From an uncultured Pseudomonadota bacterium (GTDB lineage: Bacteria > Pseudomonadota > Alphaproteobacteria > Rs-D84): a stretch of DNA of 64,000 nucleotides. Position numbers and translations under genes: made by a program. The stretch is from positions 6,852-70,851 of the forward strand of contig CADBVV010000007.1 in the NCBI GenBank assembly GCA_902798205.1, given 5' to 3'. Positions 4,464 to 58,035 of the stretch are shown here, piece by piece. The notes below the pieces were generated by a model. The model saw only the letters and a program-made list of their open reading frames with translations, made no database searches and had not been told where the DNA came from. Each line of letters opens with the position of its first letter. Positions within the stretch are counted from its first letter, which is position 1.

Positions 4464-4466
4464 ATT

Positions 4467-6046: not shown

Positions 6047-6099
6047 GTTTTTTATTTTTTCATAAAAACTACATGAAAACCACAGGAACCTATTCCATT

Positions 6100-6126
6100 A
6101 AAAAACCGCCAATTTTGGCGGTTTTT
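6100..6126. terminator. Intrinsic terminator
   Basis: aaaaaaccgcca-attt-tggcggttttt. Confidence 0.8.
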
Positions 6127-6127
6127 A

Positions 6128-6577
6128 TTATTTTTGGTGTTGTCTTAATTCTAAAAGCTGTTGGTATAATTTCGCTTTTTCTGATTTAAAATCTGGTGTA
6201 TACAAAGAATAATATTTTTGTTCTATCTTTCGCATTTCTTGCTTTAACTTATAATCATCATCACATAAAGCATAATTAACCCGTAATACAGGTTCCTTGT
6301 ACTGCCCAAAAATATACGAATTATGGACAGACATATTAATACCGTTTCGCACAAAAATTTCTTGCGCTATTTGTATATCAGATTCTTGTTGTGTGGCATA
6401 ATATGCATAAAAACGTTTACCCAAAATATTTGCTTTTTTTACTTCTGGTGCACACATTTTGCACATTATCGCCAATAAAGCAATATCGCCTTCTGGTATT
6501 GTTTTAACTTTTGAAAAAACAGGCATTTGAAAACCAGATTTCAATTTGTCATTTAACATCTTAAAAAAACGCATCAT
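6128..6577 (-). CDS. Hypothetical protein
   Basis: Probable start ATG 6577 after an AAAGG RBS; own TTGACA-16-TATAAT promoter at 6605-6632 and own terminator. Confidence 0.6.
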   Translation of the reverse strand: MMRFFKMLNDKLKSGFQMPVFSKVKTIPEGDIALLAIMCKMCAPEVKKANILGKRFYAYYATQQESDIQIAQEIFVRNGINMSVHNSYIFGQYKEPVLRVNYALCDDDYKLKQEMRKIEQKYYSLYTPDFKSEKAKLYQQLLELRQHQK

Positions 6578-6635
6578 TAGAACCTTTGTTATAATCTGTG
6601 ACAGATTATAGACAAAAACAATCAAATGTCAAATA

Positions 6636-9600: not shown

Positions 9601-10067
9601 GATCCACCAGACGAACCAGAATCATTATTATTCTTTGCCTTGAAAGCGTCGGTCAATAATGCGACCCCACCAATCACCGCGGCCACACCAACCGCAGACA
9701 ATAACAAAACATGCGAAGAAGATAATCCACTGAAAAATCCGTATTCTTCGCCACGCGTTGCAACACGACTTTTTTGTCTGTAGTTTTTAATTTGTCGTTC
9801 ACAATTTGAAGCGTCCGCACCATACATCTGCAAGACCTGTATCGCGCGTTTATCATTGTTCATAACCGCAGTACAAACCAAAGATAATCCAGTTGAATCA
9901 GTATAATTTATATCGGCACCACGATTAATTAAAACCTGGACAGTTTGTGTATCGCCACGACGTGCAGCCGCCAATAATTGTGATGCGTTTTGAAAATCAG
10001 GCGATGCCCCGAACGACATGCACGGGAATAAAAATGCTACAAAGCCCAATAATCTAATAAATTTCAT
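6636..10067 (-). CDS. Secreted protein with ankyrin repeats, degenerate S8 subtilase-like domain and C-terminal beta-barrel-like domain
   Basis: Signal peptide; ankyrin (LLAAARRGDTQTVQVLINRGADINYTDSTG); poly-Gly linker; S8-like WCFAAPG, AGSVALVKSAF, FGYGMINL; C-terminal alternating beta-strands. Confidence 0.8.
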   Translation of the reverse strand: MKFIRLLGFVAFLFPCMSFGASPDFQNASQLLAAARRGDTQTVQVLINRGADINYTDSTGLSLVCTAVMNNDKRAIQVLQMYGADASNCERQIKNYRQKSRVATRGEEYGFFSGLSSSHVLLLSAVGVAAVIGGVALLTDAFKAKNNNDSGSSGGSHGGGGGGGGGTTSFTPLFTQNLPYGPACSGTSCPTDFTVWESTDPNSDFVYMSDITARNSFNYLMVARAYNSFVRGYLGMATVRNDTTKEILDLSKYPFVGDTPEGGRPVNVTMVTGSGVNATGSAIDGIMQWFDESYKSEIVAKCVAVDGVFSPECQSLVNASVTSSHKYFNITGLKSEPGVENTAFDLTGIGTAVFSDEATEEDTKLAKIIAGWNYGGRTSGDFYGFIPNGQLTVYRTGAGQAWDTSSSSWVVADYKNYAAIKDSLKLKNSNGEYITSVVANLSLPSGSSSLNYSDVSDASFFVNNYTEAAQRRTMFGNMINNYYNLNTADDGDVNTPAQDAADVFVNVGSGNLQQVYGNALLINSAGRNVINLSAYKVNPEVATFENFAPVVYDNLQNFFATVVAVKPNSTTGTAGVTIDEYNTSGAGKLELATWTDTNDSSTTYTSRMCGLTGTGNGGAMNPWCFAAPGTTDMEATAAMAGSVALVKSAFNYMTPDQIFLLLALSADGPYLNAAALKEAGYDNITSFLQAKYSLPSNLETSDDQYLQNFKMAFGYGMINLERATRPGTNIYFYSVADKNNKKIVSSDGKTAFWGTVATSSTTNQRASTVLNGNGIIRTSFFDVIESADGSISLPRVWNMELSLNNDYKHGLYMGDVLGEFAVDSTNKRSNKIGNMTFDMAMSPRAYHDNMNGLDNLKISFNSERYDLNAEYQHHLTDGESRFDGRANGLLSLVSNGVSSGAKYKSGDFAFGAHAFSGTITDENLLENDPVVTSQFEPGHLGFANGGAIDVAYNKDKFNLNVSLGNMNETNTVLGSISDGLLSLNGAKTQYVDVVADYKPFDKAKLSARATFANTRANIGNGIISEMSDIKSNAFAIGADVYGFSFTAAMPLAVVDGKMGYDYADLSVVENNGKYEVAVNNPHTEYIDLVAQKRELRFSGSYKQPLGEFTDAGIGFIYRVNPGNTDMFGNESILMFKIHHRLGI

Positions 10068-20228: not shown

Positions 20229-20305
20229 CGGGGTGTAGCTCAGTCTGGTAGAGTACTTGGTTTGGGACCAAGGTGTCGAAGGTTCGAATCCTTTCGCCCC
20301 GACCA
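20229..20305 (+). tRNA. tRNA-Pro (anticodon TGG)
   Basis: cggggtgtagctcagtctggtagagtacttggtttgggaccaagg...ggttcgaatcctttcgccccgacca; cloverleaf with encoded CCA. Confidence 0.97.
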
Positions 20306-20311
20306 GATTAA

Positions 20312-20350
20312 ACAAAAAAAGACCGCTTTATGCGGTGTTTTTTTGTTTAA
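20312..20350 (+). terminator. Terminator after tRNA-Pro (centre of an extended inverted repeat)
   Basis: aaacaaaaaaagaccgc-tttat-gcggtgtttttttgttt. Confidence 0.8.
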
Positions 20351-20360
20351 CCTTTGGTTC

Positions 20361-20579
20361 GTCGGGGCGAAAGGATGCGCCAGAGCGCAGCGCATGGCGT
20401 ATACGAGAATACACAATTAAGAAAATTTTAAAAAATCGAAGTTCACGAGACTATGAGTTTGTGTTCACAAATGAAATGCAGTGAACACATTACGAATGAC
20501 CCACAGCCACATATTTATATATGAGCGAGGGATTTTTTAATTTTATTTATTGTGTATCGAGGAGGAAACGCCCCGACCA
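20361..20579. repeat. tRNA-linked palindromic element, copy 1
   Basis: 16-nt reverse complement of the tRNA-Pro 3' end (20361-20376); 29-nt core identical to 52226-52254; AT-rich inverted arms; 11-nt direct copy of the tRNA 3' end (20569-20579). Confidence 0.85.
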
Positions 20580-20699
20580 CGAAATTCAAAACCGCCATAT
20601 TTGGTGGTTCTGTTTTATGCTATTTTCTTGACCATTGGTATATTTTATAGTAAAAATAGGTTTAAAATCGCTTTGCAAATATACCAAGCGGAGATATAT

Positions 20700-21638
20700 A
20701 TGAAAAAAATTTTTATAGATGGCAGCAAAGGAACAACAGGTCTTCAAATATTTGAAAGACTTTCCCAAAGACGCGATATTGAACTTATCACCCTGCCCGA
20801 AGAACTTAGAAAATCACCAGATGCCAGAAAAGAAGCATTGAATCAATCGGATATTGCTTTTTTGTGTTTGCCTGATGCAGAAAGTATCGAAGCCGTTAAA
20901 ATGGTTGAAAATAAAAACACTGTTATCATAGATGCATCAACCGCACACAGAACAAATGACAATTGGACATATGGTTTTGCAGAATTACCAAATCAAGAAT
21001 ACAAAATCAGAAATTCTAAAAGAATTGCAAACCCTGGTTGCCATGCCAGTGGTTTTATCGCCCTGGTCGCACCATTGGTATATCAAAGATTGATATCTGC
21101 GGATACAATATTATCCGCATATTCTTTGACCGGATATTCTGGTGGTGGCAAGAAAATGATTGCAGAATATGAATCTGATGACAGACCAGACCTGTTTGAA
21201 GCACCAAGAATTTATGGACTTTCACAAAATCACAAACATTTGCCAGAAATGACAAAAATTTGCGGTTTGGAAAACGCCCCACTGTTTTCACCAATTGTTT
21301 CTTCTTTTTACAAAGGAATGACAACAGTTGTGTTTTTACCAGCAAAAGCATTGCGTGGTAATATCGAAGATATCAAACAAACATATAAATCATTATATGT
21401 AAATGGTTTGGTTCATTTTGCTGAAAACAATGATGAAAATGGTTTTATGTCTGCATCTGCATTCGCGGGTCGCGATGACATGGAAGTATCCGTATTTGGA
21501 AATAAAGACAGAATCACCCTGGTTTCAAGATTCGACAACCTTGGCAAAGGGGCATCTGGTTCTGCAATTGAAAATATGAACATTGTTATGGGATTAAAAA
21601 AATATACCGGATTGGTAACATCTAAAGGAGAAAGATAA
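20700..21638 (+). CDS. argC: N-acetyl-gamma-glutamyl-phosphate reductase
   Basis: IFIDGSKGTTG, DASTAHR, ANPGCHASG, DNLGKGASG; start set at ATG 20700 after a GGAG RBS. Confidence 0.95.
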   Translation: MKKIFIDGSKGTTGLQIFERLSQRRDIELITLPEELRKSPDARKEALNQSDIAFLCLPDAESIEAVKMVENKNTVIIDASTAHRTNDNWTYGFAELPNQEYKIRNSKRIANPGCHASGFIALVAPLVYQRLISADTILSAYSLTGYSGGGKKMIAEYESDDRPDLFEAPRIYGLSQNHKHLPEMTKICGLENAPLFSPIVSSFYKGMTTVVFLPAKALRGNIEDIKQTYKSLYVNGLVHFAENNDENGFMSASAFAGRDDMEVSVFGNKDRITLVSRFDNLGKGASGSAIENMNIVMGLKKYTGLVTSKGER

Positions 21639-21639
21639 T

Positions 21640-22854
21640 ATGAAAAGAGTTGATTGGGGCGTATGCGCCGCCACTGGATTCAAGGCATATGGTGTACATT
21701 GTGGAATAAGAAAAAACAAAACAAAAAAAGATTTATCTTTGATTTATTCTGATGTACCTGCTGATGCTGCCGCTGTATTCACAACTAATTTGGTCAAAGG
21801 CGCACCTTTGTTGGTCACCAAAGAACACCTTAAAGACGGCAAAGCACAAGCGATTATTTGCAACAGTGGTAATGCAAATACTTGCAATGCAAACGGTATC
21901 GAAATTGCCGAAGAAACATGCAAACTTATTGCCAATGAACTTCATATCCCTGCAGAAAATGTTATTGTTGGTTCCACCGGCGTTATTGGTCAACCAATGA
22001 GCATTGAACCATTTAAAAGTGGTATTCCAGAATTAGTTGCCGGATTAACCACCGAAGGCAGCCAAGATGCCGCACTGGGTATCATGACAACAGATACTAA
22101 ATTAAAAGAAATTGCTTTTGAATTTGAAATAGATGGAAAACCTTGCCATATTGGTGGTATTGCCAAAGGCAGTGGTATGATTCATCCAAATATGGCAACC
22201 ATGTTGGTTTATATCACATCTGATGTGAATATTGATTCTAAACTTTTGCAAAAAGCATTAAGCGATACAGTCGCAGATACTTTTAATATGATTTCTGTTG
22301 ATGGGGATACTTCGACAAATGATACCGTTGCAATTATGTCAAACGGTATGGCCGGCAACACCAGAATCACCGAAGAAAATGCGGACTATAACATTTTCCA
22401 AAATGCGTTGAATGATTTGATGGTTTACCTTTGCAGAAAAATCGCAAAAGACGGCGAAGGTGCAACAAAATTATTGGAATGCAAAGTTTCTGGTGCCACA
22501 ACAAAAGATATTGCCAGAACAGTTGCAAAAAGTGTGATTTGTTCATCATTGGTCAAGGCCGCCATGTTTGGTTCTGATGCAAACTGGGGTCGTGTTCTTT
22601 GTGCGATTGGATACAGCGGTGCAGATGTTGATGTCACAAAAGTTGATGTTTCTTTCAAAAGTGCCAAAGGCAGCATCGAAGTTTGCAAAGATGGTGCCGG
22701 GGTTCCTTTCTCGGAAGAAATTGCAAAAGAAATTTTATTAGAAGATGAAATTGAAATTTTGGTGTCTTTGAATTCCGGAGATGCTTCGGCAACTGCATAT
22801 GGATGCGATTTGACATATGATTATGTAAAAATTAACGGGGATTACAGAACCTAG
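21640..22854 (+). CDS. argJ: Bifunctional ornithine acetyltransferase / N-acetylglutamate synthase
   Basis: NSGNANTC, STGVIG, KGSGMIHPNMATML, DGDTSTND, DGEGATK, CDLTYDYVKINGDYRT. Confidence 0.97.
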   Translation: MKRVDWGVCAATGFKAYGVHCGIRKNKTKKDLSLIYSDVPADAAAVFTTNLVKGAPLLVTKEHLKDGKAQAIICNSGNANTCNANGIEIAEETCKLIANELHIPAENVIVGSTGVIGQPMSIEPFKSGIPELVAGLTTEGSQDAALGIMTTDTKLKEIAFEFEIDGKPCHIGGIAKGSGMIHPNMATMLVYITSDVNIDSKLLQKALSDTVADTFNMISVDGDTSTNDTVAIMSNGMAGNTRITEENADYNIFQNALNDLMVYLCRKIAKDGEGATKLLECKVSGATTKDIARTVAKSVICSSLVKAAMFGSDANWGRVLCAIGYSGADVDVTKVDVSFKSAKGSIEVCKDGAGVPFSEEIAKEILLEDEIEILVSLNSGDASATAYGCDLTYDYVKINGDYRT

Positions 22855-22876
22855 ATATTAACAATGGTTATATAAA

Positions 22877-24904
22877 ATGAATAAAGAAAAATCAGAAATT
22901 GTAAAACAGGTATCGCCATATCTCGAACGCTATAAAGATAAAATAGTGGTTGTGAAATATGGCGGTAATGCCATGATTAATGAAGAATTAAAACAACAGG
23001 TTATGGAAGACATTTCATTATTGTGGTCCATGGGGGTCAAAGTTGTTTTGGTTCATGGTGGTGGTCCTGAAATAAATTCTTTGATGGAAAGATTGGGACA
23101 TGTTCCGCAATTCATTGATGGGTTAAGAGTCACTGATAAAGAAACAGTTGATATTGTTCAAATGGTTTTGGCCGGCAAAGTCAACAAAGGTCTGGTAAAT
23201 CTGTTGGGCAAAAACGGCAGCAAAGCAATCGGTTTGTCTGGTATGGATGGCGGAATGCTGATGTGCAAACAAAAAGATGAAAGATTGGGTTTTGTTGGCG
23301 ATGTAGAAAAAGTCAACCCACAACCTATTCTTGATTTGATTGAAAAAGGTTATATACCTGTTATTTCAACTGTCGGGGCAGATGCAAAAGGCAATGTTTA
23401 CAACATTAATGGCGATACCGCTACTTCCTATATTGCGGGTGCATTAAATGCAGAAAGATTAATCATGATGACCGACATTGCTGGAATATTACGCGACAAA
23501 GATGATCCATCTACACTTATTTCTGAAATCTCTGTTTCTGAATCTGCGAAATTAAAAACTGACGGAATAATTTCTGGTGGCATGATACCAAAGGTTGAAT
23601 GTGCGGTTAAAGCCGTTAATGCAGGCGTTAATAATGTCGCCATCATAGATGGACGTATTCCTCATTCAATTCTTAAAGAATTGGCATCAGATAAAGGAAC
23701 AGGAACAATAATTACCAAGGATAAAAAAATGAATATTCAAGAAATGGATAAAAAATATATTGCATCAACTTATAACAGATTTCCTGTGACTATTGTTTCA
23801 GGCAAAGGTTCAATTGCTGTTGATGTAAACGGTAAAAAATATATTGATATGGGTTCTGGAATCGGTGTGACCAGTTTTGGTTACTGCGATGAAATTTGGC
23901 AAAACGCAATAAGTGAACAAATTCATCTGGTGCAACATACTTCTAATTTATATTATACAGAACCATGTGCAAAATTGGCTGAAATTTTGGCAAAAAAGAC
24001 AGGTATGTCAAAAGTGTTCTTTTCTAATTCTGGGGCGGAAGCAAACGAATGTGCAATCAAAGCAGCCAGAAAATATGCATCTGAAACAAAAGGTAAAGAT
24101 TGCTATAATATCGTAACACTTTGGAACGGTTTCCATGGACGCACATTGACAACCCTGGCCGCGACAGGTCAAGAACATTATCATGAACTTTTCCAACCTT
24201 TGACCCAAGGGTTTAAACATATCCATGTTGGCGATATCAACGAATTAAAATCTGTTGATCCAAAAACAACAGCCGCGATTATGATTGAATGCATCCAAGG
24301 CGAAGGTGGTGTAAACGTTCTGCCAAAAGAATATGTAAAAGCAATCGAAAATTATTGCAAACAAAATAATATTTTGTTGATTGTCGATGAAGTGCAAACC
24401 GGTAACGGAAGAACAGGTGAATTTTATTCATATATGAATTACGGTATTAAACCAGATATTGTAAGTACAGCAAAAGGACTTGCCGGTGGATTGCCTATGG
24501 GTGCAACAATGCTGGGTGAAAAAGTGAAAGATGTTTTTGCTTTTGGTGATCATGGGTCAACTTTTGGTGGCAACCCTGTTGCAGCAGCAGCAGCCGTTTC
24601 AATTGTGAACAGAATTGATTCAAAATTACTGGGTGATGTAAAACAAAAAGGAAAGTTTATAAAAGATTTCTTTCAAAACAATCCTGATGTTGAACAAATA
24701 TCTGGTATGGGTTTAATGGTCGGTATCAAACCTGCAAATAAACCAGCCGCAGAAGTTGTAAAACAATGTATGGAAAAAGGTGTTCTTTGCCTTACTGCGA
24801 AAGACAAGGTAAGATTGTTACCTGCCCTGAATATCCCATTGGATACATTAAAAGAAGCATTAGAAATAATAAAATCTTCAATGGCAAAAACACAAACACG
24901 ATAA
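22877..24904 (+). CDS. argB: Fused acetylglutamate kinase (ArgB) and acetylornithine aminotransferase (ArgD)
   Basis: Residues 1-284: VVKYGGNAM, VHGGGP, NINGD, GGMIPK. From Met285 (23729): SNSGAEANE, FHGRT, DEVQTG, AKGLAGG, HGSTFGGNP. Confidence 0.93.
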   Translation: MNKEKSEIVKQVSPYLERYKDKIVVVKYGGNAMINEELKQQVMEDISLLWSMGVKVVLVHGGGPEINSLMERLGHVPQFIDGLRVTDKETVDIVQMVLAGKVNKGLVNLLGKNGSKAIGLSGMDGGMLMCKQKDERLGFVGDVEKVNPQPILDLIEKGYIPVISTVGADAKGNVYNINGDTATSYIAGALNAERLIMMTDIAGILRDKDDPSTLISEISVSESAKLKTDGIISGGMIPKVECAVKAVNAGVNNVAIIDGRIPHSILKELASDKGTGTIITKDKKMNIQEMDKKYIASTYNRFPVTIVSGKGSIAVDVNGKKYIDMGSGIGVTSFGYCDEIWQNAISEQIHLVQHTSNLYYTEPCAKLAEILAKKTGMSKVFFSNSGAEANECAIKAARKYASETKGKDCYNIVTLWNGFHGRTLTTLAATGQEHYHELFQPLTQGFKHIHVGDINELKSVDPKTTAAIMIECIQGEGGVNVLPKEYVKAIENYCKQNNILLIVDEVQTGNGRTGEFYSYMNYGIKPDIVSTAKGLAGGLPMGATMLGEKVKDVFAFGDHGSTFGGNPVAAAAAVSIVNRIDSKLLGDVKQKGKFIKDFFQNNPDVEQISGMGLMVGIKPANKPAAEVVKQCMEKGVLCLTAKDKVRLLPALNIPLDTLKEALEIIKSSMAKTQTR

Positions 24905-48028: not shown

Positions 48029-51000
48029 TTAGAAGTTACATCTTAATTTCAACATACCAGTTTGAGATGTGTAATCTTTACGAACATCAATATCGTAATT
48101 TAATGCTATATCCAAGTTACGATATTTCATACCCAAACCGATACCGAATTCACCACCAATACGACTTAAACGTTCACCATCCATTGTATAAGAATTAATA
48201 CCTGGCATTGTGACGGTTGCGATATTTTTATCAGACAACAAATCATATTTAAATCCGGCATTCAATTGTGGCATAAATGTTGTATATTTCCCTGCAACTA
48301 CATTAAACGCATATTTTGCACCCAATATACCTGTCAAGAAATTTGCATTATCCATATGTGTTTTTACACCAAATGAATTCGTATAATCATCGGCAGTAAC
48401 ATGGATATAACGCAATCCCAATTCTGGGGTTATACCTGTATTAAAGTTATAACCAGTCGCGACATTACCACCATATGATTTAACAGAATAATCTGCAAAT
48501 ATTGGTGTGTTGTCAATAACAGTTCCTTTTTCAGAATAATCCGATGAAGTATAATTCGCAATTGCATTCAAATACCATTGTGATGGTTTATATTGACCAT
48601 ACACAAATACAGTGTTTGAATTGATTGCTGTATCACGTGCGGATCCACTGATATCAGAATGTGCGAACGAATACCCTGCACCGATTGTCCAACGTTTGTT
48701 TATAGTTCCATCTAAACCAAGTGCGATTCCACGTGTATAACCGTTAAATGCATCTGCTTGTTTAGATCTGTTGTATAAACCTTGGGCCCAAACACCACCA
48801 GAAGTCAATTTTGCATCACCACCGTTACGACCCACAATTGGGGCAGCCATACGAGATGCCGCCAGGTTAACAATTGTGTTTTGAACAGATGTTGATACAG
48901 ATTGTGCAACAGATTCGGTTTCTGGGTGAATTGCCTTGGTTGCATATTCAACAGATGCGGTATCGCCTGAGGCCAATTTTTCTTGCAATTTCACAGACAA
49001 CTCTTTCATCTGTTTTGATGAAGAATTGGAAGCAGATTCTACAACCGCCGCAACTGCTGTCGCTGAATCTTTCGAGATTTCAGAACCAGCAACAATTTCG
49101 TCTGCTGTTTTGCTTGATGCGGTTACATCACCACCATCCCAAGACAAATTGTAAACAGAACTTACAACTTTATCAGTAAACGAAACACCTGTTTCACCAC
49201 TTGCAACGTTCCATGTCAAATCTTCGATATCAAAGTCTGCTTTTCCACCAAAGACATGATATGTACCGGTTTCGGTCATTGTTAACGCCAATTTACCATC
49301 ACCATCAAATTCTTGTGCATTGATTTGTGCATCTTCTGCACCCTTGGTCAATGTTGCAGTCATATTACCATTTAATATGATTGTATCTTGGGTAATAGAT
49401 GCGGTGCCAATATTCAATGTTGCGCCATTGGCAATCGTCAAATCACCATTACCAGTGATACCACCATTAATTGTTGTTGTTCCAGATGCAATCGTCAAAT
49501 CACCAACATTGTGGATATCATTAGCATTGTCGCCGGCCTTATTTCCAGTAAACTTGTTTATACCGGCCAAAGTCAAGACACCTTCGTTATAAATAGCGCC
49601 ACCATTTTCAGATGCAATATTAGACGTAAATGATGAATTGGTTAATTTGATATTACCAACCTTGCCATCTGCGGCATCGTTATATATTGCCCCACCATTG
49701 TATGCTTCATTTTTTGTAAATGTTGAATCAGAAATCGTTGCAAAACCTTCACCTTTCTTGTTATTCCAAACATTCGCATAAATAGCTCCACCAAACCCAC
49801 GTATATTTGCAAAGTTACTTGCAGAAACAGAATCAGATGTCGCGTCATAGATAACACCAGCTTTGTTACCAATAAATGTGCTGTTTGTAATATCAAGTTT
49901 TTCACCAACATTGTTTTGGGCGGTTGTACGCGTTGAAATTGCACCGCCTCCTAATGTTGTGTAATTGTTCTTGAATTCTGTTCCAGAAATTGTAACTAAC
50001 GATTCAGATCCCAAAGACAACGCACCAGCACCTTCCATTTGGTTTTGATTTGACACAGACATTGCAGCAAAAGCATCCGCATCATTGAATGTAGTATAAT
50101 TATTGATAAAGTGAGAATTTGTTATAGAAGATTCTGCAGATTTATCAAAAATACCAACTGCACCGTTTTCGTTTGCATGATTGTTTCTGAAAGTTGTTCC
50201 TGAAATTGTCAAAGTACTTGGCGCATTCACAACAGTTCTTATTGCTGCACCATAATCAGCAGTATTACCATCAAACAAAGAATCTGTCACTGTTAATTTT
50301 CCGGTTGAGAAAACAGCCCCCCCTGTTACAGTGGCGTTATTATCAACAAATTCACCATTGGCTATATTCATTATACCAGAATTATAAATCGCACCACCTC
50401 TGGTTGCCGTATTTTCAGTAAATGTATATGTACCATTGGTCAAATTCACTTCTGCAACCTTGCCAGCATCAGCAAAATTGTAAATCGCACCACCATTCAA
50501 TGTTGCGGTATTATTTTCAAATGTCGTTGTACCATTGATTGTTAAATATGCATTACCATCTGTATCAACAGCACGGTTCATAATTGCACCACCGTTCATC
50601 GAAGAAGTGTTTTCTGTAAATATATTTGTGCTGGTGCCATCTTCTTTGCCAATAACCATATCTGCATCGATTGGTGTATGAACGCCTTCAACCTCGTAAG
50701 ACTGGTTTGCAACCGCACCACCACCACGTTTGTGCAATTTAGCAGCAATATCTGTTCCTAATATTTTATTGCCTGTAAACGTATTGGTTGCGCCCAATAT
50801 GGACATATTTCCACCAGTGCCGAATACAGCACCACCACTGCTGGCACTGTAATCCGATGTATTATTGCTGAATGTTATATTATTTGCAATAAGGCGTGCG
50901 GCATTATCTCCTGCTGTTTGATCTTTGAAATATAAAGCCGCACCATGTGACGTAGAAGTATTATTATCAAACAATAATGATTCGCCACCTGCCAGTAAAG

Positions 51001-51955
51001 AACCACCTTTATTCATTGTGATGGCCCCATAATCTGATACAACGTTTTTGACAACTGTGCTTCCTGTGCCTTCTGGGTTCAACACCAATGTGGCACCTGG
51101 CTTTATATCTAATTTAGAACCATCAATATTAATTTCATCTGCGTTTAATGTTGTTACACCATCTGAATCAATATCTTCTGCATTTGTATAAAATCTATTT
51201 GCAGTATTCAACAATGCAGTATCCTGTTTAACAAATGTCAATTTTGAACCATTTGTCACTGAAATTTTATCAGCATTAATTGTCGAACCATCAACCACGG
51301 CATCAACATCATCAAGAGCAAGAACACCATCATTAGAAGCATCTGTATCTTTACGTGACATCACATAAACTGCACCAGCCGCACCGTTAACAGCCTCTGT
51401 CACCTTTGCTGTCAATGCATCACCTGTATACCCCAAATCAGAAAAAACTGTTGTCATAGCTGCAACTAAATTTTGATTGATAGTCTGATAGTCCGAAAAA
51501 TCATCTTTTTCACCCCAACCTATATTTGCGGCTTTTGCAATATCCATATCGGCATTAACGTCTTCATCTGGAGCTTGCCAATTAAATGCGAATTTATCAC
51601 CTTCGTCCAAACTATCTAATGTTAAAGTGATTGGACCAAAATAAGCATCACTGTTGGACAACGCAAATGATTGGCCAACCATATTATAATTTGGAAAGAC
51701 ATTATGATATTTACTAGAGACCGTACTGTCGGCCAAACGACGCCCCCCAAATGCGGCCTCGCTAGCCGCAACATGTTGACCAGCGAAAGAAACATCACCA
51801 AAAACCCATGCATTACCATCTGTATTTGGTGCAGCGGCCATTGCAGGTGTTGCAACCATTAAACCAAATGCAATTGCATTGCATAAAATACCATGACGCA
51901 GAACAGCGCGATACGCCGCAGTTAATTCTTTTAATGTGGTTTTGGATTGTTTCAT
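48029..51955 (-). CDS. Autotransporter adhesin with Pmp-like GGA(I/V)/FxxN beta-helix repeats
   Basis: Long signal peptide; about ten GGA(I/V) motifs paired with FxxN; C-terminal autotransporter barrel (GGVWAQG...) ending in Phe. Confidence 0.9.
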   Translation of the reverse strand: MKQSKTTLKELTAAYRAVLRHGILCNAIAFGLMVATPAMAAAPNTDGNAWVFGDVSFAGQHVAASEAAFGGRRLADSTVSSKYHNVFPNYNMVGQSFALSNSDAYFGPITLTLDSLDEGDKFAFNWQAPDEDVNADMDIAKAANIGWGEKDDFSDYQTINQNLVAAMTTVFSDLGYTGDALTAKVTEAVNGAAGAVYVMSRKDTDASNDGVLALDDVDAVVDGSTINADKISVTNGSKLTFVKQDTALLNTANRFYTNAEDIDSDGVTTLNADEINIDGSKLDIKPGATLVLNPEGTGSTVVKNVVSDYGAITMNKGGSLLAGGESLLFDNNTSTSHGAALYFKDQTAGDNAARLIANNITFSNNTSDYSASSGGAVFGTGGNMSILGATNTFTGNKILGTDIAAKLHKRGGGAVANQSYEVEGVHTPIDADMVIGKEDGTSTNIFTENTSSMNGGAIMNRAVDTDGNAYLTINGTTTFENNTATLNGGAIYNFADAGKVAEVNLTNGTYTFTENTATRGGAIYNSGIMNIANGEFVDNNATVTGGAVFSTGKLTVTDSLFDGNTADYGAAIRTVVNAPSTLTISGTTFRNNHANENGAVGIFDKSAESSITNSHFINNYTTFNDADAFAAMSVSNQNQMEGAGALSLGSESLVTISGTEFKNNYTTLGGGAISTRTTAQNNVGEKLDITNSTFIGNKAGVIYDATSDSVSASNFANIRGFGGAIYANVWNNKKGEGFATISDSTFTKNEAYNGGAIYNDAADGKVGNIKLTNSSFTSNIASENGGAIYNEGVLTLAGINKFTGNKAGDNANDIHNVGDLTIASGTTTINGGITGNGDLTIANGATLNIGTASITQDTIILNGNMTATLTKGAEDAQINAQEFDGDGKLALTMTETGTYHVFGGKADFDIEDLTWNVASGETGVSFTDKVVSSVYNLSWDGGDVTASSKTADEIVAGSEISKDSATAVAAVVESASNSSSKQMKELSVKLQEKLASGDTASVEYATKAIHPETESVAQSVSTSVQNTIVNLAASRMAAPIVGRNGGDAKLTSGGVWAQGLYNRSKQADAFNGYTRGIALGLDGTINKRWTIGAGYSFAHSDISGSARDTAINSNTVFVYGQYKPSQWYLNAIANYTSSDYSEKGTVIDNTPIFADYSVKSYGGNVATGYNFNTGITPELGLRYIHVTADDYTNSFGVKTHMDNANFLTGILGAKYAFNVVAGKYTTFMPQLNAGFKYDLLSDKNIATVTMPGINSYTMDGERLSRIGGEFGIGLGMKYRNLDIALNYDIDVRKDYTSQTGMLKLRCNF

Positions 51956-52093
51956 AAGGCTCTCCCTTTCTTGTTTAATTATAGCCTAGAACACAAATTT
52001 TGATCTTGCAAGTTTTTTATACACGAATGAAATCATAATATGCAAAATATTTATTTGAAAATACAAATAATATGTATATAATTACTTTCGCAT

Positions 52094-52167
52094 TGGGGCA
52101 TAGTTTAATGGTAGAACATCGGACTCTGACTCCGCTAGTGTTGGTTCGAATCCAGCTGCCCCAACCA
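52094..52167 (+). tRNA. tRNA-Gln (anticodon CTG)
   Basis: tggggcatagtttaatggtagaacatcggactctgactccg...ggttcgaatccagctgccccaacca; U1-A72 pair typical of Gln. Confidence 0.93.
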
Positions 52168-52211
52168 GAATAAAAATCAAAACACCTTTTGGTGTTTTTA
52201 TTTTTATCCAA

Positions 52212-52347
52212 GGGGCAGCTGGATACGCCAGAGCGCAGCGCATGGCGTATACGAAGATACACAATTAGAAAAATCTTAAAAAATTGAAATTCATGAAATT
52301 TTTTTGATTTTTATTATTATGTATTGAGGACGCAGCTGCCCCAACCA
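52212..52347. repeat. tRNA-linked palindromic element, copy 2
   Basis: 13-nt reverse complement of the tRNA-Gln 3' end (52212-52224); 29-nt core identical to 20378-20406; AT-rich arms; 15-nt direct copy of the tRNA 3' end (52333-52347). Confidence 0.85.
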
Positions 52348-52352
52348 AGAAT

Positions 52353-53240
52353 TCAAACATCTCGAATATGGTGCTTTATGTTGTATGCATAAATCATACC
52401 GGTAGAATTGTTTATTTTACTTGCTTTATGCGAAACAGAAAAACCAGATTCTTTTATCATCTCTATTAATGGTTTATATATTCCATCGTGATATTCCATA
52501 GCAATTGCTTGTACTGATGATAATAATGTATTTTTATATAAATCACTGATTATTTCACGTTCTGCACCTTCGCAATCTATTTTAAGCATAATATTATTTT
52601 TATCTGTGTTCAAAATTCGTTTCAATTCATCAGCCGCAGAAAACGTACATATCCTTTCCATGCTGCCTTTATTTTTACCGATAAATTTATTTTGTTTTTC
52701 CGGTATACTGGAACAGCATCCGGATATCTCGATATCATAAGGCAATTCCAGAACGGCATATTTATCTGACAAACCATAATTATACGGTATAATTTTTTTT
52801 GCAAGTTCTTGATTTAATTTTAGATTTTGCGTTCCTAAATTATATGTTGGCGCAAAAGGTTCATAAGAATAAACTGTAGTGACATTTGGGCTCTGTGCAA
52901 AATATAAACTCGCAACCCCCATATTCATACCAATATCCAAAACAGACCATTTTGCATTATGCAAATTATCAAAATGATAACAATTATCAATTATTATATT
53001 ATTAACGTGCATTATGATGTTTGTATTCAACCCAAAAATATTTATTCCGTTACCACTAACATAAATACCATCTTTTTGTTTTTTTATAACAAAATCTTTG
53101 TTAGATACTTTTTTAAAATAACAAGCTTGAATTACAGCATATCTAACTGATTTATATAGATTAAATGGCAAACAAATTTTTGCGATTGTCACGCAAGGTT
53201 TTATAACACATCTACTAAATATATCACGAAAGAGAGACAC
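52353..53240 (-). CDS. FkbM-family SAM-dependent methyltransferase
   Basis: VLDIGMNMG, SYEPF, LKIDCEGAE, AMEYH; start codon uncertain. Confidence 0.85.
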   Translation of the reverse strand: MSLFRDIFSRCVIKPCVTIAKICLPFNLYKSVRYAVIQACYFKKVSNKDFVIKKQKDGIYVSGNGINIFGLNTNIIMHVNNIIIDNCYHFDNLHNAKWSVLDIGMNMGVASLYFAQSPNVTTVYSYEPFAPTYNLGTQNLKLNQELAKKIIPYNYGLSDKYAVLELPYDIEISGCCSSIPEKQNKFIGKNKGSMERICTFSAADELKRILNTDKNNIMLKIDCEGAEREIISDLYKNTLLSSVQAIAMEYHDGIYKPLIEMIKESGFSVSHKASKINNSTGMIYAYNIKHHIRDV

Positions 53241-53441
53241 AAAATAACCTTTTTCTTTGTCTTAATCACCATTCTCTCTATCAAATGCGTGGCTTTCACT
53301 GTATCAAAAAGAATCAACAAGTCAAGTTATTAGAAATGTCTGTCAGTACCTGTAAAAGTTAAAATATTTGCAGCCGAGTTTAATTTTAGTTCTATGTTGT
53401 TCTTAATTTTTATTATTGTCTATCAAGGAAACACTGCTGCC

Positions 53442-54176
53442 CTATTCAAACAACTTCAATTCATCAAAATCATCATGTGTGGCATTTTTTATCAATTTCA
53501 TATCTGATTCTGCCAACCATGTTTTTGCCAATTCATACGGAACAATGTCATCGTGTTCACCAATAAAATGAACCTGATTCACATTTGGTAATTTTTCCAT
53601 ATTCAATGATTCGTTTAAATCTTTATCACCAAAATATTGTGTCCATTTTGTATGATTTAAAACACCAGCAACAGTTATCCATTTATCAACCTTTAATTTT
53701 GGATTCTGTTCGATTATCAATCCAGAAATCATTGCACCACCAGAATATCCAATCAGTGTTATTTTTCTATTTCCAGCAATTTGTTTTATCGCCCCACCCT
53801 GTGCCGTTATAATCTTTTGCGAAAACCGCCCCGTTGTCCAATCTGATTCATTGCAATTATTAGACATTATAAACTGACATGGGCGTGCCATATAAACAAC
53901 ATTGTCAAAATTGTCTTTGGTTGCTAAATCACGAACAAAAGTTCCATGTGGTGTTGGGTTGCTGTTTGGTTGACCATATGCATTAAAAGCATTACCGTCA
54001 CCTTCGATATATATATGTATATTGTTATTTTTTGGGTTATTTATTTTTTGCCATGTTGCAATTTCATATTCACCAGATTTAATCGGCACATAAACAAAAT
54101 CGTCTGGGGTTTTCCAATTTGTTCCGCCACACGCGCATAAAAATAAAACGATTAAAACAGACAAAAACTTTTTCAT
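53442..54176 (-). CDS. Lipoprotein with alpha/beta hydrolase fold
   Basis: Lipobox LCA-C; IYIEGDG, ARPCQ, GYSGG nucleophile elbow. Confidence 0.82.
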   Translation of the reverse strand: MKKFLSVLIVLFLCACGGTNWKTPDDFVYVPIKSGEYEIATWQKINNPKNNNIHIYIEGDGNAFNAYGQPNSNPTPHGTFVRDLATKDNFDNVVYMARPCQFIMSNNCNESDWTTGRFSQKIITAQGGAIKQIAGNRKITLIGYSGGAMISGLIIEQNPKLKVDKWITVAGVLNHTKWTQYFGDKDLNESLNMEKLPNVNQVHFIGEHDDIVPYELAKTWLAESDMKLIKNATHDDFDELKLFE

Positions 54177-54267
54177 ATTTATATTTTTACATTTTTATAA
54201 ATTTTGGTCAATGGGTCTTGGGAAAGAATTTTTTTTATGATATAATTCACAAACAAAGGATTTTATA

Positions 54268-54567
54268 ATGACAAAGGCCGTAATCGCATTAATTCTTTTA
54301 TCCATATATACTGTGTTAGAAATTGTTTCATATATGCCACAGATAATAAAAATTATAAAAACAAAATCAGCAGACGATTTAAGTTTGGCTTCGTGGGCAT
54401 CATGGGTTATTTCTGATGTGTGTTATTTAACTTATGTATTAATGGAAAGTCCTGAATTTGGCGTGATATTTACCGCGTGTTTAAGTCTGTTTTTTGTAAT
54501 AACCGTTTATGTATTAACAATATATTATCAAAGACACAATCCACGTAAAAAAATTCGTAAAAGATAG
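54268..54567 (+). CDS. PQ-loop / SemiSWEET-family transporter
   Basis: Three TM helices; YMPQIIKIIKTKSADDLS PQ motif. Confidence 0.82.
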   Translation: MTKAVIALILLSIYTVLEIVSYMPQIIKIIKTKSADDLSLASWASWVISDVCYLTYVLMESPEFGVIFTACLSLFFVITVYVLTIYYQRHNPRKKIRKR

Positions 54568-54651
54568 TTATATTTTATTCTATGGTTTTCTGGAAAAGAA
54601 ATTTTTTTGTGATATAATCGACAGCGTCAAAAACAAACAAAAGGAAAAGTT

Positions 54652-55890
54652 ATGAAAATTAAACCATTTGCAGGTGTTCGCCCACCAAAAGAAATCGCCA
54701 GCGAAGTTGCTTCACGTCCATATGACGTTTTGAATTCAGTGGAAGCAAAAGCCGAGGCCGGTGAAAAATCGCTTCTACATATTATTAAACCAGAAATTGA
54801 TTTTGATCCGATTGCTGATGAACACGAACAAAAAACTTATGATAAAGCGGTTGAAAATTTCAAATTGTGGCAAGAACGCGGCTGGTTAAAACAAGACGAA
54901 AAAGAAATGTATTATATCTATGCACAAACTATGGATGGTCGCACACAATATGGTTTGGTTGCCGCTGCAAATGTTGATGATTATATGACAAACAAAATCA
55001 AAAAACATGAATTGACCCGCAAAGACAAAGAAGACGATCGCATGATTCATGTTCGTATTCAAAATGCAAATTTGGAACCTGTGTTTTTTGCTTACCCAGA
55101 CGTTGATGAAATGAATAAATTGGTTTCTGATTGGATTGCAAATCACGAACCAGAATATGATTATGTCGCCGAAGACGGTTTTGGCCACACTTTCTGGAAA
55201 ATCGATGATGATTCTGTTAATGCACATATCACAGAAATCTTTGCAAACGTTCCTGCGTTCTATGTTGCAGACGGACACCACAGAACAGCAGCGGCTGCAC
55301 GTGTCGGATTGGAAAAGAAAGAACAAAATCCAAATCACACCGGAAATGAAGAATACAATTATTTCTTGGCTGTGATATTCCCAGAATCACAATTACACGT
55401 TATCGATTACAACCGCGTGGTCAAAGATTTGAACAGTTTGTCTGAATCTGAATTTTTGAACAAATTGTCTGAATCTTTTGATGTTGTTGAAATGGGTGCC
55501 AATATATATCATCCAAATAAATTACATAACTTTGCAATGTATCTGGGTGGCAAATGGTATTCATTAACCGCCAAACCAGGCACATATAACGACAACGATC
55601 CAATTGGTGTATTGGATGTGACAGTGTTATCAAATTTGGTATTTGATAAAATATTAAACCTGGGCGATTTACGCACATCAAAACGTATAGATTTTGTTGG
55701 TGGAATTCGTGGCCTTGGTGAATTGCAAAAACGCGTAGATTCTGGTGAAATGGCGGTTGCTTTCGCCCTGTATCCAGTCACAATGCGTCAAATTATTGAC
55801 ATTGCAGATACTGGCAATATCATGCCACCAAAGACAACATGGTTTGAACCAAAGTTGCGCAGTGGTTTGGTAATTCACAAATTGTCATAA
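54652..55890 (+). CDS. DUF1015-family protein
   Basis: SRPYDV, IKKHELTR, YVADGHHR, MPPKTTWFEPKLRSGL. Confidence 0.92.
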   Translation: MKIKPFAGVRPPKEIASEVASRPYDVLNSVEAKAEAGEKSLLHIIKPEIDFDPIADEHEQKTYDKAVENFKLWQERGWLKQDEKEMYYIYAQTMDGRTQYGLVAAANVDDYMTNKIKKHELTRKDKEDDRMIHVRIQNANLEPVFFAYPDVDEMNKLVSDWIANHEPEYDYVAEDGFGHTFWKIDDDSVNAHITEIFANVPAFYVADGHHRTAAAARVGLEKKEQNPNHTGNEEYNYFLAVIFPESQLHVIDYNRVVKDLNSLSESEFLNKLSESFDVVEMGANIYHPNKLHNFAMYLGGKWYSLTAKPGTYNDNDPIGVLDVTVLSNLVFDKILNLGDLRTSKRIDFVGGIRGLGELQKRVDSGEMAVAFALYPVTMRQIIDIADTGNIMPPKTTWFEPKLRSGLVIHKLS

Positions 55891-56032
55891 AAATAAAAAA
55901 CCGCCTTTATGGCGGTTTAATTGTTTTACAACATACCAAACAGATGCATTATTTTTAGCCCATATACAACCGCCATAAACTTGACATATTATAATATTGT
56001 ATTACTATAACGAAAAATACAAAGGCAATCAA

Positions 56033-56869
56033 ATGCTTACATTTTACAATACCAAGAAAAGACCAGATATCAAAAAATTACTTTTTGAAGAAAACACCTC
56101 TTATTATTATGCCTATTCTGGAAGCCTTGTTGTAACCAATGAAATGTTCCATATTGCCACATTAAAAAGACATCTTAGCAAAGACACAAAAGTTCTTACC
56201 GTCTCAGGATCTGGTGAACAACCATTATTTTTTAAGATATATGGTGCAAAAGATATTGTTACCTTTGATATTTCGTTCACATCATATTTATTAACATCGT
56301 TAAAAATATCTGCTGCACAAATTTTTACAACAAGCACTGAATACAATATATTTTTAAACGATTTATACACAATAAAAACATCAAATGATTTATTTGATAA
56401 ACCATATTTATCACAAGCCATACAGAACATGAGCAAAGAAAACCAATCTTATATAAGTAAAATCGTTAGATATCAACTTATATCCAGATTGCTGTATCTT
56501 AATAATTCTTGTAATTTTTATTCTTTAAACCAAGAACAATTCGATAAATTAAAAAAATCGATTGAAACAGATATCCCTTTTATTTGGACAAACATTACCA
56601 GATTATACAAAGGGATAAATAAAGAAAAATTTGATATCATCTATTATTCTAATATTTTGAGTTTTAAAGACGAAATAACTCTCAGACCTATTTTAGAAAA
56701 AACTAAGCGACATTTAACACAAAATGGCAAATTATTTTTGCTGATAGAACCTTGTAAAATTAATCAAATAACAAACGCTGTTAACGACGTTTTTCAAAAC
56801 GATTATGACAAAACAATATCTCCAAAAAAAGAATATTTTCATCAAATGATCATACAACATTCTCATTAG
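56033..56869 (+). CDS. SAM-dependent methyltransferase-like protein (DUF3419/BtaA-like)
   Basis: VLTVSGSGEQ, TFDIS, FDIIYYSNI. Confidence 0.6.
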   Translation: MLTFYNTKKRPDIKKLLFEENTSYYYAYSGSLVVTNEMFHIATLKRHLSKDTKVLTVSGSGEQPLFFKIYGAKDIVTFDISFTSYLLTSLKISAAQIFTTSTEYNIFLNDLYTIKTSNDLFDKPYLSQAIQNMSKENQSYISKIVRYQLISRLLYLNNSCNFYSLNQEQFDKLKKSIETDIPFIWTNITRLYKGINKEKFDIIYYSNILSFKDEITLRPILEKTKRHLTQNGKLFLLIEPCKINQITNAVNDVFQNDYDKTISPKKEYFHQMIIQHSH

Positions 56870-56881
56870 TGTATTTTATGT

Positions 56882-56910
56882 AAAAAAACCGCCATAAAAG
56901 CGGTTTTTTT
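56882..56910. terminator. Bidirectional intrinsic terminator
   Basis: aaaaaaaccgc-cataaaa-gcggttttttt. Confidence 0.8.
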
Positions 56911-56927
56911 AAATATAAATCATACAA

Positions 56928-57380
56928 TTAAAATGGAATATCGTCTGCGATATCTTCGATATTAACTTCTTCACGTGGTGCAGATGCCATTGGTGCAGAT
57001 TCAGACGAACCATCAACAGCCTTGGCCCCAGACAAAATAACCATTTGACCAGAATATGGATTCAAAACAACTTCGGTTGTGAAAGTATCAACACCCTGTT
57101 GGTTTTGCCATTTACGTGTACGAAGCGCACCTTCCAAATAAAGTTTTGTTCCCTTTTGCAACATACGTTCTGCAACATCAACCAAAGATGGATTGAAAAT
57201 CACAACACGATGCCATTCGGTTTGTTCTTTTTGTTCACCGGTTTGACGATCACGCCATCTGTCCGAAGTCGCCAATGAAAAAGATACAACCTTTTGTCCA
57301 GATTGCATAGTGCGAACCTGAGGTTCTTGACCAATATTACCAACCAATATTACTTTGTTTATACTTCCTGCCATATTCAT
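56928..57380 (-). CDS. ssb: Single-stranded DNA-binding protein
   Basis: NKVILVGNIG, TEWHRV, DDIPF tail. Confidence 0.97.
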   Translation of the reverse strand: MNMAGSINKVILVGNIGQEPQVRTMQSGQKVVSFSLATSDRWRDRQTGEQKEQTEWHRVVIFNPSLVDVAERMLQKGTKLYLEGALRTRKWQNQQGVDTFTTEVVLNPYSGQMVILSGAKAVDGSSESAPMASAPREEVNIEDIADDIPF

Positions 57381-57468
57381 TTCCTTTGTTTAATCTGTAA
57401 TTTAATGATTGCGAAAAAAAATCATAAATACAAGAAAAAAACGCGCCACAGAAAATGGCGCGTCAAAA

Positions 57469-58035
57469 TTATTCTTCATCCGATTCGTCTGATTCAATTT
57501 CATCTTCTTCATCAACAGCATTCAAATCGATTTCTTTTGGCACACCCAAAATATCTTCGATTTTATCGGATGCAGCATCTAAATCCATCTTGTGTAAAAC
57601 TGCAAATTCTTGTGCCATTCTTTCCAGCGCACGCAAATATAATTGACGTGCAGAAAAAGTCATTGTATCGGCCGCACTTCTGCGTTGCAAATCACGGACA
57701 ACTTCTGCCAATTTCATTGGATCGCCAGAATTAATATTTTCTTCGTATTGTGCCGCACGACGCGCCCAAATCATACGTTTTGCGCCGGCTTTACCCTTGG
57801 CAGAAGCAATTGCTTCATCCATTTTCTTGGCACTGCTTAATGGACGCAAACCAGATAATTCAGCACGATCAACCGGAACACGCAAAGTCATATGATTTCT
57901 TTCGAAATCAATAACCATCATTTTGATTTTTTGATCACCGATTGTTTGTTCTTCGACACGCAATAATTTACCAACACCCTGGGTTGGGTAAACAACATAT
58001 TGTCCCGATTTAAAATCTAATTTTTTAGTTGGCAT
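57469..58035 (-). CDS. CarD/CdnL-family RNA polymerase-binding factor
   Basis: GQYVVYPTQGVG, LRVP, WARR, AEVVRDL. Confidence 0.92.
   Translation of the reverse strand: MPTKKLDFKSGQYVVYPTQGVGKLLRVEEQTIGDQKIKMMVIDFERNHMTLRVPVDRAELSGLRPLSSAKKMDEAIASAKGKAGAKRMIWARRAAQYEENINSGDPMKLAEVVRDLQRRSAADTMTFSARQLYLRALERMAQEFAVLHKMDLDAASDKIEDILGVPKEIDLNAVDEEDEIESDESDEE

Follow-up and report, generated by a model that had tools for sequence, protein, structure and literature searches.

The units behind tRNA-Gln and tRNA-Pro

The 64,000 nucleotides (nt) of contig CADBVV010000007.1 analysed here, hereafter the window, derive from an uncultured alphaproteobacterium and contain two tRNA genes as called by ARAGORN and Rfam, both on the plus strand: tRNA-Pro(TGG) at positions 20229-20305 and tRNA-Gln(CTG) at 52094-52167, the latter found by ARAGORN and scoring 67.4 bits with the Rfam tRNA model. 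Directly behind each gene lies a non-coding unit built of hairpins, the ends of which repeat, in inverted and in direct orientation, the 3' end of the very tRNA that precedes it. We call the hairpin units of the kind present at tRNA-Gln type A, and designate by L numbers the related loci that were fetched from metagenome-assembled genomes (MAGs) and metagenomes. A preliminary description had listed the parts of the Gln unit, all of which are present in their place and far above chance expectation.

Read along the plus strand, tRNA-Gln ends in 15 nt (52153-52167) that constitute the left direct repeat. These are followed by the leader that the unit carries (52168-52211), consisting of an A-rich spacer, a bidirectional terminator hairpin and a T-rich spacer; the terminator stem-loop AAAACACC-TTTT-GGTGTTTT (52179-52198) extends into a 38-nt palindrome with one mismatch (52170-52207), and this same leader stands 5' of all Gln units in L020, another MAG. 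Then comes the inverted arm, GGGGCAGCTGGAT (52212-52224), which ends in GGAT and is the exact reverse complement, over 13 of 13 nt, of 52150-52162, corresponding to tRNA positions 59-71; it has two matches in the window against 0.02 expected from shuffled sequences. The arm forms the base of a 75-nt hairpin (52150-52224), running from the tRNA 3' end through the terminator and back to the arm, which as DNA has a folding energy of -27 kcal/mol (z = -9.8). The core hairpin, ATACGCCA-GA-GCG-CAG-CGC-A-TGGCGTAT followed by ACGA, occupies 52223-52254, and 29 nt of it (52226-52254) are identical to 20378-20406 behind tRNA-Pro, just as the preliminary description had it; allowing up to three mismatches, the window contains two matches to this core and shuffled sequences none. 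A long AT-rich hairpin with apex TTCATGA, here called H3 (52257-52324), leads to a purine tract of the form T(C/T)GAGGA with a 2-nt linker (52325-52332), the columns of which are invariant or nearly so in the alignment of copies; the Gln copy reads TGAGGA at 52325-52330. The right direct repeat, CAGCTGCCCCAACCA (52333-52347), is identical to 52153-52167 in 15 of 15 nt, CCA included, where shuffling predicts 0.06 matches. The tail AGAATTCAAAC (52348-52358) is a decayed start of the original tRNA trailer and encloses, as had been claimed, the TGA stop (52353-52355) of a minus-strand open reading frame (ORF) at 52353-53240.

The sister unit behind tRNA-Pro (20306-20579, plus strand) has a leader at 20306-20360, an inverted arm at 20361-20376, its core at 20378-20406, H3 at 20409-20557, a purine tract at 20558-20568 and an 11-nt direct repeat, CGCCCCGACCA, at 20569-20579. 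The Gln copy had been described as about 80 nt shorter for want of a loop. The Pro copy is in fact 81 nt longer, but the surplus is not a loop of the unit: it is an insert at the apex of the AT-rich hairpin (20450-20530), which interrupts H3 and is homologous to a separate module of about 75-85 nt that we call B1.

Empty and occupied sites

Homologues of the PHP-domain gene adjoining tRNA-Pro gave access to the same locus in other species, where the site is empty in L052 and L054 and occupied in L053/L025 and L055, as it is in the window. In the empty sites of L054 and L052, the CCA of tRNA-Pro directly precedes CGAAATTCAAAACC (or a variant of it) and a terminator; in the window, the same CGAAATTCAAAACC-terminator stands after the distal 11-nt repeat, and the terminator lying directly behind tRNA-Pro, GATTAAAC...GACCGC-TTTAT-GCGGT..., is the one that the empty sites lack. 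Hence the first base of the insert is the one behind CCA, and its last is that of the distal repeat. This comparison of loci, which settles in the affirmative the question of empty sites raised in the preliminary description, shows that the unit is inserted DNA. By analogy with tRNA-Pro, the Gln insert would comprise 52168-52347, or 180 nt with its leader; the earlier figure of a minimal element of about 136 nt left out the leader terminator that the unit carries, and has to be abandoned.

The order of parts in a unit is leader terminator, inverted arm, core, long hairpin, purine tract and direct repeat. The insert sits between direct repeats of the tRNA 3' end (15 nt for Gln, 11 for Pro, 13 for Ser and 10-14 for Glu), and beyond the distal one lies the original terminator of the tRNA. 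The leader hairpin GACCGC-TTTAT-GCGGT is common to the Pro unit of the window and a Glu unit of L029, which shows that leaders travel with the units.

Distribution and target range

A collection with one genome for each prokaryotic species was scanned for an exact 20-mer of the core. This gave 15 genuine loci, which belong without exception to Candidatus Enterousia or to MAGs of rumen or gut Alphaproteobacteria, together with 10 chance matches in GC-rich genomes; a scan of metagenomes added three rumen contigs. These public scans relied on exact core words, which more diverged relatives outside Enterousia would escape, and by that measure the family appears confined to Candidatus Enterousia and its alphaproteobacterial relatives of gut and rumen. 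A covariance model trained on 16 copies recovers exactly two copies in the window, 52202-52356 (151.7 bits) and 20354-20589 (127.5 bits), and detects further, more diverged copies in related loci. Looking for the core at the tRNAs of this genome and its relatives, as had been proposed, thus yields about 20 copies behind five host tRNA species, namely Pro(TGG), Gln(CTG), Glu(TTC), Ser(GGA) and Ser(CGA). Every copy has a tRNA gene, or a duplicate of a tRNA 3' end, immediately on its 5' side and shares its orientation. All host tRNAs have the sequence AATCC at the junction of T-loop and T-stem, which is absent from five unit-free tRNAs of the related loci (Asp, Leu, two Arg and Ala); the tRNA-Gln variant of L056 is also devoid of it, reading AGTCC. 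Since the Pro locus is base-identical in three independent assemblies and the tRNA-Gln layout of the window recurs in L020, the Gln locus is not an artefact of assembly.

Rfam 15, searched with the window and the related loci at the gathering score and at lax E-values, gave matches only to tRNAs, the best other match being tmRNA_permuted, which scored 14.5 bits where the cut-off is 47. A phage or plasmid origin was examined by scans of viral contigs and by BLAST against phages and plasmids, all of which produced chance matches only, and a search of the literature found no description of such an element.

The inverted arm

The longest exact run of complementarity between an arm and its cognate tRNA measures 7-16 nt (9-16 nt in most copies), while the next-best tRNA of another amino acid usually matches over 5-8 nt; tRNA-Glu copies in which the arm spans the conserved T-loop reach up to 11 nt with a non-cognate tRNA. 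The covariation of arms with tRNA identity, proposed earlier from two loci, therefore extends to five tRNA species and about 20 copies, in which each arm matches its own tRNA. Four G·U pairs in the host tRNAs reveal which strand was the template: at Pro 6:67, Pro 49:65, Gln 50:64 and Glu 1:72 the arm is in every case the Watson-Crick complement of the 3' strand, so that it was copied from the 3' strand of the tRNA and not from the 5' strand. In Pro and Ser copies the complementarity runs on through CCA, spacer and terminator, and the tRNA end, the leader and the arm form a single hairpin of 75-95 nt, which as DNA has a folding energy of -27 to -37 kcal/mol (z = -10 to -12). Because the palindrome includes the spacer that follows CCA, the mature tRNA cannot have been the template, which must have been its gene or precursor.

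The inverted copy covers the last 13-20 nt of the tRNA, up to T-loop position 59, and the arm nearly always stops at GGAT, which is complementary to positions 59-62. In tRNA-Glu the motif ATCC occurs twice, and both occurrences serve as return points in different lineages; this argues for a return at short microhomology rather than for a structural stop. A stop at the modified A58 was also considered as the cause of the arm boundary, a proposal weakened by those tRNA-Glu arms that continue through the whole T-arm to the second ATCC.

Some arms have mutated (in L020, L025 and L007) with no compensating change in the direct repeat, and for this reason the arms may be products of insertion rather than working guides. 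The preliminary description had spoken of a templated, possibly programmable mechanism: the first adjective stands, since all four G·U pairs have become Watson-Crick pairs, whereas the second is unproven: no recombinase, transposase or reverse transcriptase was found nearby, neither a circular form nor an RNA has been seen, and the mutated arms are uncompensated.

Movement between tRNAs

When the bodies of the units are clustered with the arms excluded, the clusters cut across tRNA identity, and each subfamily occupies two or three tRNA species. For example, the Pro body of the window shares 90-92% identity with the Gln bodies of L020 but 71% with the Pro body of L025, which is in turn 90% identical to the second Glu copy of L029; likewise, the Ser body of L030 is 94% identical to Glu bodies. 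Such a distribution shows repeated retargeting, the subfamilies having moved between tRNAs. The number and kind of units behind a given tRNA vary between species, and a single array in L029 holds two subfamilies. The units form tandem arrays, with small gene cassettes between the repeats, matching the accretion that has been described at att sites (PMC5704250).

Fold of the conserved body

The body of the unit is conserved far more strongly than its surroundings: among three species-level MAGs its identity amounts to 98-100%, as against 87-98% for the leader and 59-81% for the downstream flank. In the 20 copies aligned to the covariance model, 97% of the cells are paired and both-sided changes occur in 10 of the 23 pairs, a result reached by none of 500 shuffles; sliding the partners by 1-3 columns destroys the signal. 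The outer stem of the core covaries (CGCCA/TGGCG versus GGTCG/CGACC and GGTCA/TGACC), as does the inner stem (GCG/CGC versus GTGCC/GGCAC), L026#2 and L029#2 being the copies in which both stems have changed, and H3 contributes both-sided changes in 7 of its 15 modelled pairs. There are 15 cells with G·U against 3 with A·C, and this bias assigns the fold to the tRNA-sense strand, in the form of either RNA or single-stranded DNA.

By itself, the Gln unit adopts a three-way junction in which arm and repeat pair (-49.2 kcal/mol, z = -7.3), with a 10-bp closing stem that leaves a single-stranded AACCA tail free. The closing stem itself does not look as if it were under selection, given the uncompensated arms, which led us to reject arm plus repeat as a selected RNA stem, and given the Glu copies of L006, L017 and L021, where the repeat has no CCA and the body is still 98-100% conserved. 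No conserved promoter was found within the unit.

B1 and other modules

The module that interrupts H3 of the Pro unit occurs in the window and in L003, L016, L020, L049 and L056. It is composed of two variable hairpins between conserved single-stranded motifs, C(A/T)A..AGT, ACGAATG, CNCAG and CGAGGGA, and always lies 3' of (T)TCGA or ACGA, never with a target duplication. Its contexts are of three sorts: the T-loops of displaced tRNA 3' fragments, the long-hairpin apex of two type A copies, and an unrelated promoter/operator motif. On this pattern B1 is an independent small insertion element, so that the Gln copy is simply one without B1. In its behaviour the module resembles a miniature element of the IS200/IS605 type. 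A hammerhead-like core was considered for it and rejected, because its CUAUGAG and CGAA misfit the hammerhead consensus and no Rfam family matches.

Further types of unit with tRNA-matched ends, B2 and C, are present in L004, L025 (its second unit), L030 and L055, and in L008, L015 and L051. B2 reads GGTTCGACCCGC.GGCGAAAGGC...GAATGAGCCAAGGG and has a stem like that of a T-arm and the loop AGCG.AGCG; type C follows Ser-GGA and a partial tRNA-Asp. Both types join the direct tRNA copy at the T-loop. Where B units are combined with the 3' part of type A, the hybrids look like deletions of the long palindrome. The motif GGTTCGAC of the B modules brought to mind a transfer-messenger RNA (tmRNA) origin, which was discarded, as the tmRNA score reported above is only 14.5 bits and ARAGORN finds no tmRNA.

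Genomic context

The window is ordinary chromosome with housekeeping genes. The ORF that ends in the tail of the Gln unit matches FkbM with 22.4 bits, below the Pfam cut-off of 22.7, in DNA with a G+C content of 0.32 (52-54 kb). To the right of tRNA-Gln, G+C is 0.32-0.35 over 52000-58000, compared with about 0.37 elsewhere in the window, and the minus-strand ORFs 52353-53240 and 53442-54176 have no Pfam match above cut-off. The DNA in this position varies by species, L049 having an arg operon there and L020 and L056 other genes. In the window, an argC-argJ-argB/argD operon stands behind tRNA-Pro (20700-24904); elsewhere in Enterousia MAGs (L046-L051) the operon is behind tRNA-Gln, behind tRNA-Glu or behind no tRNA, and the nearest relatives of its argC outside the genus are found in Clostridia, at about 66% identity. 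To judge from these positions and affinities, the operon looks acquired and relocated. The variable DNA to the right of tRNA-Gln and the shifting position of the arg operon identify the 3' flanks of tRNAs as sites of gene flux in the genus. The earlier statement that the Gln unit borders acquired DNA is upheld to the extent that flanking DNA and operon position differ between species, but not in its appeal to an FkbM gene.

Searches for an enzyme were made in several ways. A scan of about 50 loci and the window for reverse-transcriptase motifs found none. A tblastn search with the integrase of L051 retrieved only L003 and a weak match in L025, neither adjoining a unit, and a linkage of integrases to units was rejected, since the integrases present are unrelated to the units. 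Viral contigs gave no hits beyond chance matches. In L051 a P4-like island (3700-8200; integrase, HTH_17, Toprim, AAA_25) abuts a partial 3' half of tRNA-Asp, behind which stands a type C unit whose ends match Asp; an intact tRNA-Asp was not found at the other end of that island.

Just downstream of the arrays in L006, L017, L020, L021, L022, L025, L026, L051, L052, L054 and L056, and nowhere in the window, stands a repeated motif, CAC(C/G)GAGTTCG(A/T)(A/G)AGTT followed after about 30 nt by TTT(A/G)CGAACTT; then come a CTTGACA...TATAAT promoter and small secreted or membrane ORFs, and the motif is probably a shared operator/promoter of variable small genes. Among other large ORFs of the window, a 1308-residue autotransporter with Chlamydia PMP repeats (48029-51955, minus strand) lies directly upstream of tRNA-Gln, a 1143-residue ankyrin-repeat protein is encoded at 6636-10067 (minus strand), and four consecutive ORFs of 296-554 residues without Pfam match occupy 10175-15450 (plus strand).

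Proposed origin and mobility of the units

How did one family of bodies come to stand behind five tRNAs, each time with ends that fit the tRNA in question? The explanation that we favour, tentatively and well short of conviction, is that the units constitute a non-coding, non-autonomous integrative element of about 180-260 bp, proper to Candidatus Enterousia and its relatives, the arms of which are copied from the target. Such an element would integrate right after the CCA of a tRNA gene carrying AATCC at the junction of T-loop and T-stem, and would point the same way as the tRNA. A single long hairpin would arise from direct copy, leader hairpin and inverted copy; the duplex at its base would mimic the end of the targeted tRNA gene and provide a folded attachment site for recombination with a tRNA end by an enzyme encoded elsewhere. 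The inverted arm could be written by fold-back or template-switch copying of the tRNA end across the terminator hairpin, with the copy rejoining the element at the GGAT/ATCC microhomology, and in this way one body could gain arms that match Pro, Gln, Ser and Glu. As for the conserved body, it would be either what the enzyme recognises, which is probable under this scheme, or an RNA with a function of its own.

Several observations weigh against such an integrative element. Pfam searches found no integrase, transposase or reverse transcriptase beside any copy or within the window, and the integrases of L051 and L003 do not adjoin type A units; moreover, we know of no recombinase family that uses a site whose sequence changes with its target. 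The leaders of the Pro and Gln units in the window are unlike the native terminators, so that a simple fold-back at the native terminator cannot account for the whole unit. Repeats that range from 10 to 15 nt suit a block of identity but not a staggered cut of fixed width. Recombination between the repeats could have produced the empty sites by secondary loss. The extreme conservation of the body, combined with its G·U bias, suggests a function as RNA that mobility leaves unexplained. Finally, neither a circular or excised form nor a transcript of a unit has come to light.

A bolder version of the same idea, which we regard as unlikely, would have the units as substrates of a nucleic-acid-guided integration, in which arm and direct copy pair with both strands of the tRNA end and are rewritten at each insertion. 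Were it true, one enzyme would place an element of about 180 nt behind any tRNA with AATCC, and the units would amount to a self-reprogramming, site-specific inserter.

The fold of the body invites a quite different explanation, compatible with mobility, namely that the unit serves as the gene of a tRNA-like RNA, transcribed by read-through from the promoter of the tRNA. The arm would pair with the repeat to give an acceptor/T-stem minihelix with a free NCCA, its greatly expanded "T-loop" being formed by core hairpin plus H3; the transcript would mature in the manner of a tRNA, through RNase P and 3' trimming enzymes, and the arms would match the tRNA through mimicry of it or competition with it. 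The three-way junction of the Gln unit with its single-stranded AACCA agrees with this proposal, and so do the placement of the fold on the tRNA-sense strand by covariation and G·U bias, the shared orientation of all copies with their tRNA and the terminator after each of them, and the conservation of the body far above that of its flanks. Yet a strong terminator separates tRNA and unit, and there is no sign of a conserved promoter; the Pro and Ser repeats are devoid of the T-stem strand and offer only 7-8 bp for closing; the CCA-less Glu repeats have kept their bodies intact; the mutated arms are uncompensated; and no Rfam family matches. Nor can selection by itself write 13-16 matching bases beside an unchanged core. 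We therefore hold a tRNA-like RNA to be an improbable account of the units.

Errors of replication might suffice without any dedicated mobility, if a fold-back at the terminator and a second switch of template had produced a tRNA end in direct, inverted and again direct copy, the body being a separate small module that landed at the T-loop junction like B1. This reading explains the direct-inverted-direct layout and the extension of the palindrome through CCA and spacer, as well as the returns at ATCC microhomology with two alternatives in tRNA-Glu. It finds parallels in the B units, which have an inverted and then a direct copy of tRNA positions about 49-76, in B1, which inserts 3' of TTCGA in three unrelated contexts with no target duplication, and in the hybrids, which resemble deletions of an unstable palindrome. 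What it fails to explain is the leader of the Pro and Gln units in the window, which differs from the native terminator, and the recurrence of one leader hairpin behind different tRNAs, implying movement of the whole unit. It would also need identical junctions to have arisen independently at five tRNAs, and would require the inverted tRNA copy to continue, as TCGAACC..., to the right of the body, where other sequence stands; an insertion of the body into the T-loop of an inverted tRNA copy has been rejected on this latter ground. Template switching by itself is accordingly, in our judgement, a distinctly doubtful source of the units.

Position 59, where the arm ends, is also the boundary of retroviral primer-binding sites. 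An entity resembling a tRNA-primed retroelement could be imagined, with the arm as primer-binding site, GAGGA(G)GAA as polypurine tract and a reverse transcriptase encoded elsewhere that rewrites the arms in each cycle from the primer tRNA. The arm is indeed templated by complementarity and ends at the complement of position 59, the Ser arms measure about 18 nt plus the complement of CCA, and the order on the sense strand of arm, body, purine tract and repeat parallels that from primer-binding site to polypurine tract. We nonetheless consider this very unlikely: no reverse-transcriptase motif turned up in the loci scanned, the spacer within the palindrome calls for a gene or precursor as template instead of a mature tRNA, the extended tRNA-Glu arms pass straight through the T-loop, the flanks are not long terminal repeats, and the literature search yielded no bacterial retroelement primed by tRNA. 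Lastly, whole-locus duplication, chance or an assembly artefact, for which no supporting point was found, is refuted by the arms, which differ between loci and fit each its own tRNA, making the two loci copies of one element and not a duplicated locus, as the preliminary description had maintained, by the shuffle expectations of 0-0.06 for core, direct copy and arm, by the agreement of three assemblies at the Pro locus, and by some 20 further copies in other MAGs and metagenomes.

Comparison with known systems

The closest category for an integrative element of the kind favoured here is that of the tRNA-targeting integrative elements and their integrase-less derivatives, the cis-mobilizable elements or CIMEs (PMC5704250). 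Like CIMEs, the units sit at the tRNA 3' end flanked by direct repeats of that end, show insertion polymorphism, restore the 3' end of the tRNA while supplying a terminator, and occur in tandem arrays with other units and gene cassettes, having no recombinase of their own. They depart from CIMEs in that the family is found at five or more tRNA species with matched ends each time, not at a single fixed target; in their inverted target copy, which forms a hairpin of 75-95 nt; in their small size of about 180 bp, with a strongly conserved and covarying interior; and in the failure to find a cognate integrase.

Single-strand attachment sites that fold from inverted, target-like copies are known from the attC sites of integrons and the attP(+) of CTX phage, which mimics dif. 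The units share with these the folding of two inverted target-like copies into a stem that mimics the duplex target, a structure conserved above its sequence, and the assembly into arrays. Their target, however, is a variable tRNA end rather than a fixed dif or attI. The R and L box consensus of attC is absent as well, a direct reading for R''/L''-L'/R' boxes and the GTT triplet finding no RYYYAAC/GTTRRRY pair at the hairpin base, and no IntI or Xer enzyme is linked to the units.

With the palindrome-associated transposable elements (PATEs) of the IS200/IS605 family and with REP/RAYT systems, the units have in common a small size, a non-coding content, hairpins near both ends and a strict orientation, and the constant left flank GGAT(T) is reminiscent of IS200/IS605 miniature elements; unlike these, type A is bounded by inverted and direct repeats derived from the target, which that family does not make, and no Y1 transposase was found at the loci of the units. 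The units are not miniature inverted-repeat transposable elements, since their ends are not inverted repeats of each other, the arms of H3 are internal and the repeat length varies from 10 to 15 nt instead of being fixed.

A structured non-coding part with end segments complementary to the target or to each other recalls the IS110 bridge RNA and the non-coding RNA of retrons with its flanking a1/a2 repeats, and the layout of arms, short hairpin and long hairpin that of msr-msd in particular. In contrast to both, no recombinase or reverse transcriptase is adjacent to the units, and their arms appear to have been copied from the target, not evolved; unlike the split guides in the internal loops of the bridge RNA, these arms cover the same target segment, are mutually complementary and close one stem. 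Retroelements of the long terminal repeat type come to mind for the 13-18-nt arm ending at position 59 and for the purine tract, but the flanks of the units are not identical repeats and no reverse transcriptase was found.

As a rule, mobile DNA inserts at tRNA genes by means of a dedicated integrase with one fixed recognition site. In the present case, one small family of elements has ends matched to at least five tRNAs, each copied from its target, and to our knowledge no other mobile element retargets in this manner. If the copying belongs to the mechanism of insertion, the element would change its target without a change of enzyme, a question that bears directly on programmable DNA insertion. 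Under the least remarkable reading, too, the units mark the 3' flanks of tRNAs as the main sites of gene flux in a gut symbiont with a reduced genome, present a strongly conserved structured domain, and show in a well-defined instance that a bacterial chromosome can tolerate long palindromes.

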